Origin: Escherichia phage AV122
Sequence record: OR352952.1
DNA length: 64,000 nt
Reading direction: 5' to 3' (one strand)
Part shown: positions 2,807 to 32,088 of the stretch, piece by piece
How the letters are laid out: each line of letters starts with the position of its first letter
Numbering within the stretch: the first letter of the stretch is position 1
Notes under the pieces: generated by a model
What the model saw: the letters and a program-made list of their open reading frames with translations, nothing else
Databases searched by the model: none
What the model was told of the DNA's origin: nothing
Made by a program: the position numbers and the translations under genes

Positions 2807-3139
2807 TTATTTTACTACTTTCCAATGTTGCATGTCAAGTTTACCAACTTTTTTCATCTTCTCAATCAAACGTTCGGCACGTTGGCGAGCTGTAACATAA
2901 TACCATTCACCTAATTCATTTTGTTCAATTTTTCCAACGATTACTGTATTCAATTCATAAATCCAACCAGTAAAGAAATTATGAACTTGAATTGTAAAGG
3001 TGAAATCTGTTCCCATACCTTCTGTTGTTTCTACTTCAATAATATCACCTTCAACTGCCATTAAGAACCACATAGTTTCATCATATTTACCATTGAAGCA
3101 TTTAGTTTTAACTGTAGCGTTCAGATTAATCGTTTTCAT
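2807..3139 (-). CDS. hypothetical protein
   Basis: 110-aa ORF with early promoter at 3167-3196 upstream. Confidence 0.6.
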   Translation of the reverse strand: MKTINLNATVKTKCFNGKYDETMWFLMAVEGDIIEVETTEGMGTDFTFTIQVHNFFTGWIYELNTVIVGKIEQNELGEWYYVTARQRAERLIEKMKKVGKLDMQHWKVVK

Positions 3140-3166
3140 TTTATTCTCCTTTGTTTGTATAAGATA

Positions 3167-3196
3167 ATACTATCACAAAGGAGCTATACTGTAAAC
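3167..3196 (-). promoter_or_regulatory. early promoter (sigma70-type)
   Basis: GTTTACA, 17 nt, TAGTAT on minus strand upstream of ORF ending 3139. Confidence 0.55.
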
Positions 3197-3215
3197 AACT
3201 TTATGCAATCTTTGG

Positions 3216-3244
3216 AAAATAAAAAAGGACTCCCGAAGGAGTCC
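3216..3244 (-). terminator. rho-independent terminator
   Basis: Hairpin GGACUCC-UUCG-GGAGUCC followed by U-run on minus-strand transcript. Confidence 0.55.
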
Positions 3245-3249
3245 TCAAC

Positions 3250-3468
3250 TTATGCTTTCTGCTTACCAAAACGAGAAGCATCATCTCGAAGAACCGCACG
3301 TGCTCGGCGCATGATCTTCTCAACAGTTTGATTGATACGAGAGTTCGACCCACGCTTGTAGCCAGCGCGTTTAGAATCACCAACTTTCTTTTCAACTGCT
3401 TTCTTTGCTTTAACTTGTTTTGCCATTATAAATTCTCTTTTAAATGAAAATGCAGGACTTATTGGCAT
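3250..3468 (-). CDS. small basic protein (alternative ATG at 3426)
   Basis: 72-aa ORF, Lys/Arg-rich; followed by terminator hairpin 3216-3244. Confidence 0.5.
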   Translation of the reverse strand: MPISPAFSFKREFIMAKQVKAKKAVEKKVGDSKRAGYKRGSNSRINQTVEKIMRRARAVLRDDASRFGKQKA

Positions 3469-3714
3469 TGCCTGCGCAAGCCCTCAAGGGGTACTTAGGT
3501 TTTGAATATTTACCGACAGGATAACCATAAACCTCGTCAACATACCACCAAGACTTACACAGATAACACTTTTCTGACGCATGATAGTAACATTCAAGAG
3601 GTACACCATAAAACTGCCGGGGTCTTAAAACTATAATGATTCGCAAATCATTAATCAGACAGTTCGACGGCTCCTCGATTTTAGCTCACACTAAGGCAGT
3701 GAATCTCCAATAAA

Positions 3715-3963
3715 TTACTTCAGTGTTACCACAAAGTGACGAACTGCTTTTCGTGCAGCAGAAGCCAGAGGCTTAGCATATTTAAGTTCATCTTTTTCCT
3801 GAAGCTCAGCAGCTAATGCAGTTTGAGCAGGATTCAGATGTTTGAAATAACGCAGGATTTCAAGAGCTTCGGCTTCAACATCAATAGATGCGCCATAGTT
3901 TTCGTGACCATTATTCCATGCGTTTCGTTGCAGTTCAAGAGCGTGTTGTAATTGTTTAATCAT
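3715..3963 (-). CDS. rIII: rIII lysis-inhibition accessory protein (by size and position)
   Basis: 82 aa, located between 30.x cluster and gene 31 as in T4. Confidence 0.7.
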   Translation of the reverse strand: MIKQLQHALELQRNAWNNGHENYGASIDVEAEALEILRYFKHLNPAQTALAAELQEKDELKYAKPLASAARKAVRHFVVTLK

Positions 3964-28305: not shown

Positions 28306-31300
28306 ATGGCTACTTTAAAACAAATACAATTTAAAAGAAGCAAAACTGCAGGTCAACGTCCTGCTGCTTCAGTATTAGCCGAAGGTGAATTGGCTATAAA
28401 CTTAAAAGACCGTACTCTTTTTACTAAAGATGACTCGGGAAATATTATTGATTTAAGCATTACCGCTGGCGGTAATATTAGTGGAAATATCACTCAAACT
28501 GGCGATTATACACAGACTGGAAAATTTAATTTAATTGGTCCGCAAATTGTAGCAAGCGGTGGATATATTGAGTTTAATTATCGTACTACTGGAAGTGGGG
28601 CTTGGTCCGGTCAACACACTGCAAAAGCTCCAATTTTTGTAGATTTAAGCTCAGCTACTTCCACATCTGAATATAATCCTATAATTAAACAGCGCTTTAA
28701 AGATGGTACTTTTTCATTAGGTACTTTAGTTTCTGAAGGTTCGTTGAAGATTCATTATATCAATGAATCTGGCGATTCGAAATATTGGACGTTTCGACGT
28801 GACGGCGGATTTACTGTTGACGGTGGAGGTTTAGCAGTATCAGGAGGTAGTATAACTACAACCGGAAATATTGCAGCTCTCGGAAATATTACTTCGCCTC
28901 AGATTAATACTAAAAATATTATTTTAGATACAAAAGCATTTGGACAATACGACAGTCAGTCTTTAGTTAATTACGTATACCCGGGCACCGGTGAAGAAAA
29001 TGGTATAAACTATCTTCGTAAAGTTCGGTCTAAATCAGGTGGAACTATTTACCATGAAATTTGTACAGCTCAGACTGGGCTAGCTGATGAAGTTTCTTGG
29101 TGGACTGGTAATACACCGTTATTTAAACTATACGGTATTCGTAACGACGGTAGAATGATTATTCGCAATAGCTTGGCCATCGGGACCGTGACTGAAGGAT
29201 ACCCGTCAAGCGATTATGGAAATACCGGGGTAATGGGAGATAGGTATTTAGCTATTGGCGATAATGCTTCTGGACTTAAATGGGTTCGTACTGGCGTTTA
29301 TGACCTGATGGCTAATGGTATTTCATCTGCTACCATTTTGAACAACGGTATTAACAGCACCAAGAAATTGATGGTTGGTTATAGTCGAGATTCCGGTTCT
29401 ACTTGGGATTTTCCAAATAACAACCAGGCAATGTTTACTGCGCGTACCGATGTTGATGGTAATAATAACGGTGATGGGCAAACTCATATCGGTTATAACA
29501 GTAATTCTAAAATGTATCACTATTTCCGTGGTGCAGGTCGTATGTCCGTTAGTATGGGCGATGGACTTCTTGTTGAGCCGGGTATTTTAGACATTAAAAC
29601 TGGGTCTAATAGAGTTGCTATTAGAGCAGATGGTACATTTGACTCAACCCAACGTATTTCTATGCGTACGGGCTTGTTTTTAAATGGTGATGATAATACT
29701 AATGCTTTATCGTTTAAAGCTCCTACCGGTGTTGACGGAACCAAAACCATTAACTGGGATGCAGGCACTCGTAACGGACAGAATAAAAATACTGTTTCAA
29801 TTAAAGCATGGGGTAATGCCTTTAACTCAGTTCCCGGTATTAGAGAAACTGTATTTGAAGTATATGATTCACAAGGTTATTATTTTTATTCACAACGCCA
29901 GCGCCCAGAAGGTTCTGAAACTGTTGGGCCCGTTGTAACCCAGTTCAATGGACCAGTTAATGCTAACGGCTCTATTAGCACTGCAGGAAATCTTAAAGTT
30001 GATGGTTTAAGCACTTTAAACGGTAATGTTACAATGAAGAACGGCTTGTTTGTCCAAGGTGGTTCTTCTATTACTGGGCAAGTTAAAATCGGCGGAACAA
30101 CAAATGCATTAAGAATTTGGAATGCCGAATATGGCGCTATTTTCCGTCGTTCAGAAAGTAACTTTTATATTATTCCAACCAATAAAAATGAAGGCGAAAG
30201 TGGAGACATTCACAGCTCTTTAAGACCTGTGAGAATAGGATTAAACGATGGCATGGTTGGGTTAGGAAGAGATTCTTTTATAGTAGATCAAAATAATGCT
30301 TTAACTACTATAAACAGTAACTCTCGCATTAATGCCAACTTTAGAATGCAATTAGGACAAAATGCTTATATAGATATTGAGGCTTCTGATGGAGTTCGCC
30401 CAACAGGTTGTGGTTCCTTTGCATCTCAGAATGACGTAAACGTCAGAGCTCCAATTTATATGAATATAGAGCGTACTGCTACTTCTGAATACATTCCTAT
30501 TGTTAAACAACGGTATGTAAAGGGTGATAGTACTTATTCTATTGGTACCTTGATTTCTCAGGGAGACTTCCGCGTCCATTATCACCAGGGAACTAGCACC
30601 AATGGCGTAGATTTGAGTTGGGAATTCCGTCGCACAGGCGATTTCCGCGCGCCAGGTAAAATTATTGCCGGTGCTGCTACTCTTGGCACGGATGGTAATA
30701 TTACTGGCGGTTCTGGTAACTTTGCTAACTTGAACACAACTATCGAATCATTAAAAACCGATATTGTTTCAAGTTACCCAATCGGTGCTCCTATTCCATG
30801 GCCAACGGATACTCCTCCTGACGGTTACGCTATTATGGAAGGCCAGACCTTTGATAAGTCTGCATACCCAAAATTGGCTATGGCTTACCCATCTGGCGTA
30901 ATTCCAGATATGCGCGGGCAAACTATCAAGGGTAAACCAAGTGGTCGTGATGTATTAAGTGCAGAAGCTGATGGTATTAAGGCTCATAGCCATAGTGCAT
31001 CGGCTTCAAGTACTGACTTAGGTACTAAAACCACGTCAAGTTTTGATTATGGTACTAAAACATCTTCAAGTTTTGATTATGGTACGAAGAACACTAATAG
31101 TACTGGTGGTCATACTCACTCTGTAAGTGGTACAACAAGTGCTGCTGGTGAGCATGCTCACCACTTAGGTCTGTTATTAGTTAACGGTGGTGATGCTTTG
31201 TACGGGTATACAACCGTTGGTAACAGCCTCCCTAGAACACTTGACTGGCTTGACAGAAGAGACAATAAATTCCCCAACACTAACACAACTGGTAACCATA

Positions 31301-31509
31301 CACATACATGGTCTGGCACTACAAGCAATGCTGGTGCTCATACACATACTGTAGGTATTGGTGCTCATACACATACTGTAGGTATTGGTGCTCATACTCA
31401 CTCGGTAGCAATTGGTTCGCATGGTCATACTATCACTGTAAATAGTACAGGTAATACAGAAAACACGGTTAAAAACATTGCTTTTAACTATATCGTTCGT
31501 TTAGCATAA
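28306..31509 (+). CDS. 37: long tail fibre distal subunit gp37 (receptor-binding tip)
   Basis: 1067 aa; C-terminal His-rich GxHxH repeats; tandem coding repeats. Confidence 0.92.
31021..31090 (+). repeat. tandem 30-nt coding repeat in gene 37
   Basis: GGTACTAAAA..AGTTTTGATTAT repeated 2.3 times, encoding GTKT[TS]SSFDY. Confidence 0.8.
31333..31440 (+). repeat. tandem 27-nt coding repeat in gene 37 (His-rich)
   Basis: GGTGCTCATACACATACTGTAGGTATT x2 exact plus two diverged copies, encoding GAHTHTVGI. Confidence 0.8.
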
Positions 31510-31539
31510 GGAGAGGGGCTTTGGCCCCTTCTAAATATG
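31508..31539 (+). promoter_or_regulatory. gene 38 translation initiation region with hairpin between SD and AUG
   Basis: AAGGAG at 31508-31513, stem-loop GGGGC-UUUG-GCCCC at 31515-31528, AUG at 31537. Confidence 0.5.
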
Positions 31540-32088
31540 AAAATATATCATTATTATTTTGACACTAAAGAATTTTACAAAGAAGAAAATTACAAACCGG
31601 TTAAAGGCCTCGGTCTTCCTGCTCATTCAACAATTAAAAAACCTTTAGAACCTAAAGAAGGATATGCAGTTGTATTTGATGAACGTACTCAGGATTGGAT
31701 TTATGAAGAAGACCATCGCGGAAAACGAGCATGGACTTTTAATAAAGAAGAAATTTTTATAAGTGAAATTGGAAGCCCGGTTGGTATAACTTTTGATGAG
31801 CCTGGCGAATTTGATATATGGACTGATGACGGTTGGAAAGAAGACGAAACATATAAGCGAGTTTTAATTCGTAATAGAAAAATTGAAGAATTATATAAAG
31901 AGTTCCAAGTTTTAAATAATATGATTGAAGCTTCTGTCGCCAATAAAAAGGAAAAATTTTATTATAAAAACCTTAAGCGGTTCTTTGCTCTTTTAGAAAA
32001 ACATGAGCATTTAGGTGGTGAATTCCCTGCATGGCCTGAAAAAGAACAGAAGCCTTGGTATAAGCGTTTATTCAAGCATTACGTATAA
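31537..32088 (+). CDS. 38: tail fibre assembly chaperone gp38
   Basis: 183 aa, MKIYHYYFDTKEFYKEENYKP recognised as T4-type gp38. Confidence 0.9.
   Translation: MKIYHYYFDTKEFYKEENYKPVKGLGLPAHSTIKKPLEPKEGYAVVFDERTQDWIYEEDHRGKRAWTFNKEEIFISEIGSPVGITFDEPGEFDIWTDDGWKEDETYKRVLIRNRKIEELYKEFQVLNNMIEASVANKKEKFYYKNLKRFFALLEKHEHLGGEFPAWPEKEQKPWYKRLFKHYV

Follow-up and report, generated by a model that had tools for sequence, protein, structure and literature searches.

The window analysed in this study, a 64-kb stretch of the genome of Escherichia phage AV122, is T4-like (Tequatrovirus) DNA. Over the first 25 kb, many phages of this kind share 96.5-96.9% identity with it, and genes 34, 35, 36, 37, 38 and t follow one another in the T4 order. 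The product of gene 37, gp37, is the distal subunit of the long tail fibre, and its database entry, WPK37121.1, forms a singleton cluster at 90% identity. A megablast search with the whole gene 37 against the phage collection, from which AV122 itself is absent, returned no record with coverage above 83%, and neither a tRNA scan nor an Rfam scan of the 64-kb window gave a match. The identification of the protein as gp37, proposed earlier from the nucleotide sequence, was borne out by the gene order, by alignment with T4 gp37, and by a match to 2XGF, the crystallised fragment of T4 gp37 (residues 785-1026). In this phmmer comparison, aa 797-1067 aligned with chain residues 2-242 (E 1.1e-102); large gaps were confined to the two repeat units and the head. 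The features of the locus are collected in Table 1.

Table 1. Features of gene 37 and its surroundings, in positions of the 64-kb window
Feature	Position	Strand	Extent in protein	Remarks
Gene 37 (gp37), distal long-tail-fibre subunit	28306..31509	+	1067 aa	Exact match to WPK37121.1, tail fiber, Escherichia phage AV122
Mosaic segment 1	28306..28980	+	aa 1-225	91-100% nt identity to SHBML-50-1 (sliding identity)
Mosaic segment 2	29053..30705	+	aa ~250-800	83-100% nt identity to vB_EcoM_FJ1
Collar (D10), first part	30769..30981	+	aa 822-892	Mapped from T4 residues 811-881; PF07484 and 2XGF alignment
Ascending needle strand	30982..31161	+	aa 893-952	HxH at H894/H896, H936/H938 and H950/H952 (plus H953)
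Array 1	31006..31095	+	aa 901-930	Three 30-nt units, no His
Head (receptor-binding tip)	31162..31296	+	aa 953-997	45 residues; T4 tip mapping from PMC6957217 and PMC5221442
Descending needle strand	31297..31455	+	aa 998-1050	HxH at 998/1000, 1012/1014, 1021/1023, 1030/1032 and 1039/1041
Array 2	31333..31440	+	aa 1010-1045	Four 27-nt GxHxHxVxI units
Collar (D10), second part	31456..31506	+	aa 1051-1067	Identical to T4 residues 1010-1026
g37-g38 intergenic region	31510..31536	+		GGAG at 31510-31513; hairpin GGGGC-TTTG-GCCCC at 31515-31528; gene 38 ATG at 31537
Gene 38, T4-type tail-fibre assembly chaperone	31537..32088	+	183 aa	181/183 identical to T4 gp38

The hairpin between genes 37 and 38 (-15.4 kcal/mol, z -2.8) is conserved in T4, SHBML-50-1, and BYEP01. 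Because gp38 is nearly identical to the T4 chaperone, AV122 can be assigned to the T4 rather than the T2/T6 scheme, with the tip of gp37 as the adhesin; gp38 would thus act as a folding chaperone rather than as an adhesin. In T2/T6-type phages, the adhesin is gp38 itself, a protein of ~260 aa that contains hypervariable segments and glycine-rich motifs, and their gp37 has no HxH needle. A distal fibre of this type, with a gp38 adhesin capping gp37, was ruled out for AV122: gp38 is of the shorter T4 chaperone type, and gp37 has an HxH needle. AV122 (OR352952, 167,386 bp) is of wastewater origin and was isolated on ESBL83 (Vitt et al. 2024, PMC10844046). In the same paper, AV122 was grouped with the phages that have gp37 plus a gp38 chaperone (T4-type), and the differences between its gp37 and that of T4 were found to be concentrated in the head. 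AV122 did not plate on waaC and waaR mutants of ECOR4 (PMC10844046), a result that implicates the LPS outer core as its receptor. This is a dependence of infection; the authors allow for an outer-membrane protein as an additional co-receptor, and binding by gp37 is putative.

The organisation of the tip can be read against that of T4. According to PMC6957217, the D10 collar of T4 gp37 comprises residues 811-881 and 1010-1026, the D11 needle and tip comprise residues 882-1009, and the needle holds seven Fe atoms coordinated by HxH motifs (Islam 2019). The residues that contact LPS and OmpC are placed within about 933-959 of the tip in PMC6957217 and PMC5221442. The T4 chain reverses at the head, so that three chains yield a six-stranded needle, as described in the Bas63 paper (PMC12609058); the length of the needle is reported there to scale with the number of di-His motifs. 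Both PMC6957217 and PMC12609058 agree with the original prediction that HxH motifs coordinate metal ions in the T4 needle, the metal being iron. A Pfam Collar domain (PF07484) covers aa 827-874 of the AV122 protein (43.9 bits, cut-off 24; E 2.3e-11). Array 1 occupies the stretch of ascending strand that separates the first HxH, H894/H896, from the second, H936/H938; array 2 makes up the HxH run of the descending strand, and the head is a separate segment between them. Therefore, the repeats belong to the shaft and not to the receptor surface. AlphaFold2 modelling of aa 797-1067 with a 37-sequence alignment produced a long beta-hairpin around the head in an unreliable monomer (pLDDT 54.5, pTM 0.21). 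This model was set aside, because a monomer had been folded whereas the protein is expected to be an intertwined trimer.

With Tandem Repeats Finder, 2.9 copies of a 30-nt unit were detected at 31006-31093 (84% matches) and 2.4 copies of a 27-nt unit at 31332-31397 (100% matches). Array 1 is in frame and encodes three units of 10 residues each, 30 residues in total; the unit type in the comparison with T4 is GTKTxSSFDY. The units of array 2 are GAHTHTVGI, GAHTHTVGI, GAHTHSVAI, and GSHGHTITV, the last two together forming a stretch of 18 residues, and units 1 and 2 are identical at all 27 bases. Two tandem coding arrays had been predicted within the last 150 aa of gp37; the arrays themselves were confirmed, but array 1 begins approximately 167 aa from the end. 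The multiple HxH motifs also stood up to counting: gp37 has eight of them, between aa 894 and 1041 and all within the last 174 aa, versus a mean of 1.45 when the last 187 aa were shuffled, and eight were reached in only 1 of 100000 shuffles. Histidine is likewise concentrated at this end, with 17 residues in the last 187 aa versus 8 in the first 880. Three HxH motifs are found on the ascending and five on the descending strand around the head, with spacings of 42,14 and 14,9,9,9, respectively.

AV122 gp37 is indeed longer than T4 gp37, as had been predicted; the difference is real because T4 gp37 (NC_000866) has 1026 aa. Full alignment distributes the 41 extra residues over one GTKTxSSFDY unit (+10), one GAHTHTVGI unit (+9), the head (+11), and a net gain of 11 upstream, where N-terminal and central indels (aa 60-200, plus small ones) are located. 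Repeats therefore make up 19 of the 41 residues. The unit of array 1 that T4 lacks appears as a gap at 31054-31083, whose position within the repeat is arbitrary, and the missing unit of array 2 as a gap at 31332-31358. The additional repeats relative to T4 expected by the original prediction were thus found in the alignment, as one more 10-aa unit and one more 9-aa HxH unit. T4 differs from AV122 in both length and repeat number, and the claimed difference therefore stands.

A census of needle architectures was performed on 213 distinct complete C-termini drawn from 120 word-index matches, 150 representatives at 50% identity, 80 IMG/VR loci, and phage references. In these C-termini, the length of the first HxH-to-HxH spacer of the ascending strand follows from the count n of 9-aa steps in the descending strand as 12 + 10n (spacer/n pairs of 22/1, 32/2, 42/3, 52/4, 62/5, and 73/6), and both strands have the same number of 14-aa steps. 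Of the 213, 211 obey this rule as coded. A 212th sequence (P0212) fits by length only, because an HxH replaces an FDY motif inside its spacer, and there is one true exception, the metagenomic contig L007 (IMG/VR 3300030021_000020), in which two FDY units accompany two 9-aa steps. L007 may mean either that pairing is not absolute or that the contig is mis-assembled or non-functional. Five head clusters (>=70% identity) each occur with more than one needle length; the changes are always paired, and at least six independent paired changes are represented in these clusters.

The number of HxH motifs per chain ranges from 5 to 10 in the census and is 5-8 in 209 of the 213 sequences. Seven, the T4 count, is found in 64, and eight in 47 (22%). 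The architecture of AV122 (42,14; 14,9,9,9) is shared exactly by 42 sequences, among them lambda-Stf-like E. coli prophage fibres, and, with a spacer of 41 instead of 42, by three more. Thus, the 8-HxH state is an ordinary variant of the family and not a special expansion. The spacings also suggest that the two arrays are not independent, but are halves of one structural unit that vary together, and that the needle is a ladder of two rung types, in which AV122 would have one rung of the first type beyond T4. The sequence of gp37, its tip family, and its likely receptor class have been published before; the pairing rule (obeyed in ~99% of the 213 sequences) and the independence of needle length from the head may perhaps be unstated in print.

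The best 120 word-index homologues included no full-length T4-like gp37 and none with the AV122 head; the head was found in other phages by tblastn against the phage collection. The same 45-aa head is carried by needles with six (Felixounavirus), seven (BYEP01, sutha), and eight (AV122, SHBML-50-1) HxH motifs, and repeat number is therefore uncoupled from the specificity module. The converse arrangement is seen in L089, a contig from an E. coli assembly containing a T4-like fragment that encodes a T4-type gp38: its collar and outer needle show 91-100% nt identity to AV122, and its head is unrelated. Against L089, LTH02, and BYEP01, identity to AV122 breaks off near nt 31080-31110 and 31330-31360, and these positions coincide with the two arrays. 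Downstream of the two mosaic segments in Table 1, aa ~800-1067 show 88-100% nt identity to SHBML-50-1. Breakpoints at these positions would fit a role for conserved motifs as recombination junctions at which adhesin modules are swapped. Such a role for conserved motifs was reportedly described by Tetart, Desplats and Krisch in 1998, and the Krisch laboratory is said to have regarded "His boxes" as recombination junctions of this kind.

Based on the match to 2XGF, the paired spacings, and the distribution of the head, the open reading frame very probably encodes the receptor-binding tail-fibre protein gp37 of the T4-type (Tequatrovirus) phage AV122, with the arrays as the paired halves of one extra needle rung. 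The last ~270 aa of gp37 would form a collar-needle-head tip as in T4 (2XGF); each chain would ascend the needle, make the head, and descend again, and three chains would build the six-stranded needle. The arrays would represent the two sides of a repeated rung, with a 10-aa His-free unit on the ascending strand and a 9-aa GxHxHxVxI unit on the descending strand. One Fe(II) is expected per 9-aa unit, held by the two histidines that each of the three chains contributes. Homology and spacing arithmetic suggest an extra rung, an eighth Fe site, and a gain in length: three 9-aa steps in AV122 versus two in T4 predict eight metal sites versus seven, and the needle would be one rung, or roughly 2.5-3 nm, longer if the rise is ~3 A per residue. 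Specificity would reside in the head, which, with the adjoining 14-aa HxH rung, behaves as an interchangeable module whose borders are the two arrays. Unequal recombination within the arrays is the probable cause of changes in repeat number, and such a change seems to persist only if the other strand changes to match, since the hairpin has to keep register. In situ replication slippage from a T4-like 7-site ancestor was considered as the origin of the extra units and was not retained, as GAHTHTVGI differs from the GDHSHSVGI of T4 and BYEP01 at several codons. Given these codon differences and the similarity of the outer needle of L089, recombinational import or homogenisation is at least as likely as slippage.

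It is an evenly balanced question whether repeat number has any function of its own. The arrays may simply be junctions for head swapping, with copy number drifting through out-of-register crossovers while the strands are kept matched. The breakpoints at both arrays are in line with this, as are the mosaic of SHBML-50-1-like and FJ1-like segments that extends over the whole gene and the complete identity of the first two units of array 2. Furthermore, a shared AGT in both SSFDY units of AV122, with AGC in both units of SHBML-50-1, hints at lineage-specific homogenisation, although this signal is a single site. Drift also leaves the dominance of certain lengths (the 5-8 HxH class) unexplained. 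It is compatible with the paired-rung explanation and does not replace it.

Needle length could also be a trait selected in its own right. A ladder of matched pairs (10/9 aa or 14/14 aa), varying separately from the head and giving 5-10 metal sites, would then set how deeply the head extends into the LPS, O-antigen, or capsule layer, and could in this way influence host range or adsorption efficiency alongside the head; this idea is fairly unlikely. A related explanation is that the expansion of the repeats itself changes host range, either through receptor contacts made by the needle or through a longer reach across LPS, O-antigen, or capsule. Tetart et al. 1996 reportedly linked an expanded host range to duplications of a small adhesin domain, and Bartual et al., as cited in PMC5221442, proposed an alternative docking in which needle and head both touch OmpC. 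The wide range of needle lengths in the census could also reflect selection. On the other hand, mutational mapping in T4 assigned contact with LPS and OmpC to the head, few parts of the tip are as conserved as the repeat units when phages with different receptors are compared, and the identical head on 6-, 7-, and 8-site needles comes from isolates of E. coli and Shigella sonnei with no visible host pattern. We therefore consider a host-range effect of the expansion itself to be unlikely. The alteration of host range suggested by the original prediction is unsupported, as the repeats lie in the shaft, the same head is carried on three needle lengths, and the 8-site state is common.

Tandem repeats are prone to mis-assembly, and the unmatched count of L007 may be an example, but the chance that the extra units of AV122 are an assembly or sequencing artefact is negligible: the reading frame is intact, the architecture recurs in the 42 distinct sequences and in the three one residue shorter, L089 has the same units, and the independently sequenced SHBML-50-1 genome has both arrays, with array 2 matching base for base.

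In the preferred reading, in which the arrays are the two sides of a needle rung, the head and its adjoining 14-aa rung provide a natural cassette, bounded by the arrays, for the engineering of T4-type fibres. The same head would work on 6-, 7-, and 8-site needles, and the needle could be lengthened or shortened only by altering both strands at once. Should its length influence reach through surface polysaccharide, this would offer a second design parameter for host-range engineering. The significance for the AV122 window itself is small, since this is an annotated fibre with a structurally known tip family and a common repeat state.

Among known systems, T4 gp37 is homologous to AV122 gp37 over aa 797-1067. 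There is complete or almost complete identity in the collar and the last 17 aa, and HxH motifs occur on both strands. T4 gp37 differs in having 7 HxH motifs and one unit fewer in each array, and the AV122 head is 11 aa longer and essentially unrelated in sequence. The N-terminal aa 60-200 and other shaft segments also diverge, with an overall identity of 66%. A very similar tip is that of Shigella phage SHBML-50-1 (KX130864), which is included in the ShigActive and ShigaShield cocktails: its gp37 shares the head and both repeat numbers with AV122 and is 96% identical over the C-terminal 187 aa. In contrast, this gp37 has 1025 aa, and nt identity in the middle part (aa ~250-800) is 16-86%, so that the two are distant or unrelated there. 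In the Escherichia phages BYEP01, sutha, and N2, which are also Tequatrovirus, the head is 95-100% identical at the aa level and adjoins the same 14-aa rung, but the needle is of T4 length, without the additional 30-nt and 27-nt units. The head-coding region of N2 has a 1-nt deletion.

The same head extends beyond this genus. It is 100% identical in the long tail fibres of Felixounavirus phages (vB_EcoM-LTH02, Shigella phage Z31, ECML-1, LF110P4, and P54), and the region corresponding to aa ~917-1010 of AV122 is 81-96% identical at the nt level. These fibres differ in belonging to another genus, in having an unrelated shaft and a 6-HxH needle (22,14; 14,9), and in their collar and C-terminus; no T4-type gp38 is annotated downstream at these loci. 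The Felixounavirus Bas63 is also LPS-dependent. A wider relationship is found with lambda Stf and PhiNP ORF6, members of the "T4- and lambda-based RBP family", which have a C-terminal tip of the same ~215-aa family and an adjacent chaperone of the gp38/Tfa type (Magaziner and Salmond 2022, PMC9659904). Members of this family have other heads and other N-terminal shafts, occur in temperate siphovirus or myovirus contexts, and have chaperones that fall in a separate Tfa clade; many of the prophage members nevertheless have the 8-HxH architecture of AV122 (42,14; 14,9,9,9).

The gp37 gene is a three-part mosaic. Both ends of the protein (aa 1-225 and approximately 800-1067) resemble that of Shigella phage SHBML-50-1, and the middle (aa approximately 250-800) resembles that of vB_EcoM_FJ1; no record covering more than 83% of the gene was found in the phage collection searched. 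The protein also contains an internal domain repeat, the two copies of which share 39% identity (E 4e-20). The N-terminal copy, which is mostly lacking in T4 gp37, falls where the N-terminal insertions relative to T4 sit.

Features of gene 37 and the gene 37-gene 38 junction (window coordinates)
Feature	Window position	Location
gp37, three-part mosaic	28306-31509	
Domain repeat, N-terminal copy	28591-28860	aa 96-185
Domain repeat, second copy	30400-30693	aa 699-796
SSFDY units	31036-31095	
GGAG, then GC hairpin GGGGC-TTTG-GCCCC	31510-31536	between gene 37 stop and gene 38 ATG

In the needle, both SSFDY units carry AGT as the second Ser codon, and both carry AGC in SHBML-50-1. That the two copies show the same synonymous difference is a hint, resting on this single site, that the array has been homogenised by gene conversion. 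The rule that 10-aa ascending units are matched by 9-aa HxH steps on the descending strand was broken by only one of the 213 sequences (L007, IMG/VR UViG 3300030021_000020, match 3001-3807), wherein two ascending SSFDY units stand against only two descending 9-aa steps. This unmatched needle may represent a true intermediate, or it may stem from a gene that is defective or a repeat that has been collapsed. A needle matching that of the window was found, with a head that does not match, in a 1443-nt contig of an E. coli genome assembly (GCA_050788865.1, contig ABZFLD010000211.1). The contig carries the coding sequence for the C-terminus of a T4-type gp37 and, after it, for a gp38 that is likewise of T4 type, and looks like DNA of a lytic T4-like phage inside a bacterial assembly rather than a prophage.

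The GC hairpin before gene 38 has a predicted energy of -15.4 kcal/mol (z -2.8) and, together with the GGAG, is also kept in T4, SHBML-50-1 and BYEP01. It corresponds to the known gene 38 translation-initiation hairpin, which draws the Shine-Dalgarno sequence near the AUG.

In Escherichia phage N2 (L005, ON645936), gp37 is frameshifted in the head by a 1-nt deletion (column 311 of alignment A3), so that the gene is a pseudogene unless the deletion is an error of sequencing; the record labels the gene merely 'similar to tail fiber protein'.

Several Felixounavirus phages (among them L087 and L088, each at 3001-3135) have long tail fibres whose head is 100% identical to the 45-aa head of the window gp37, which implies that the head cassette was recently exchanged between Tequatrovirus and Felixounavirus. 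The latter genus, with genomes of approximately 88 kb, is unrelated to Tequatrovirus.
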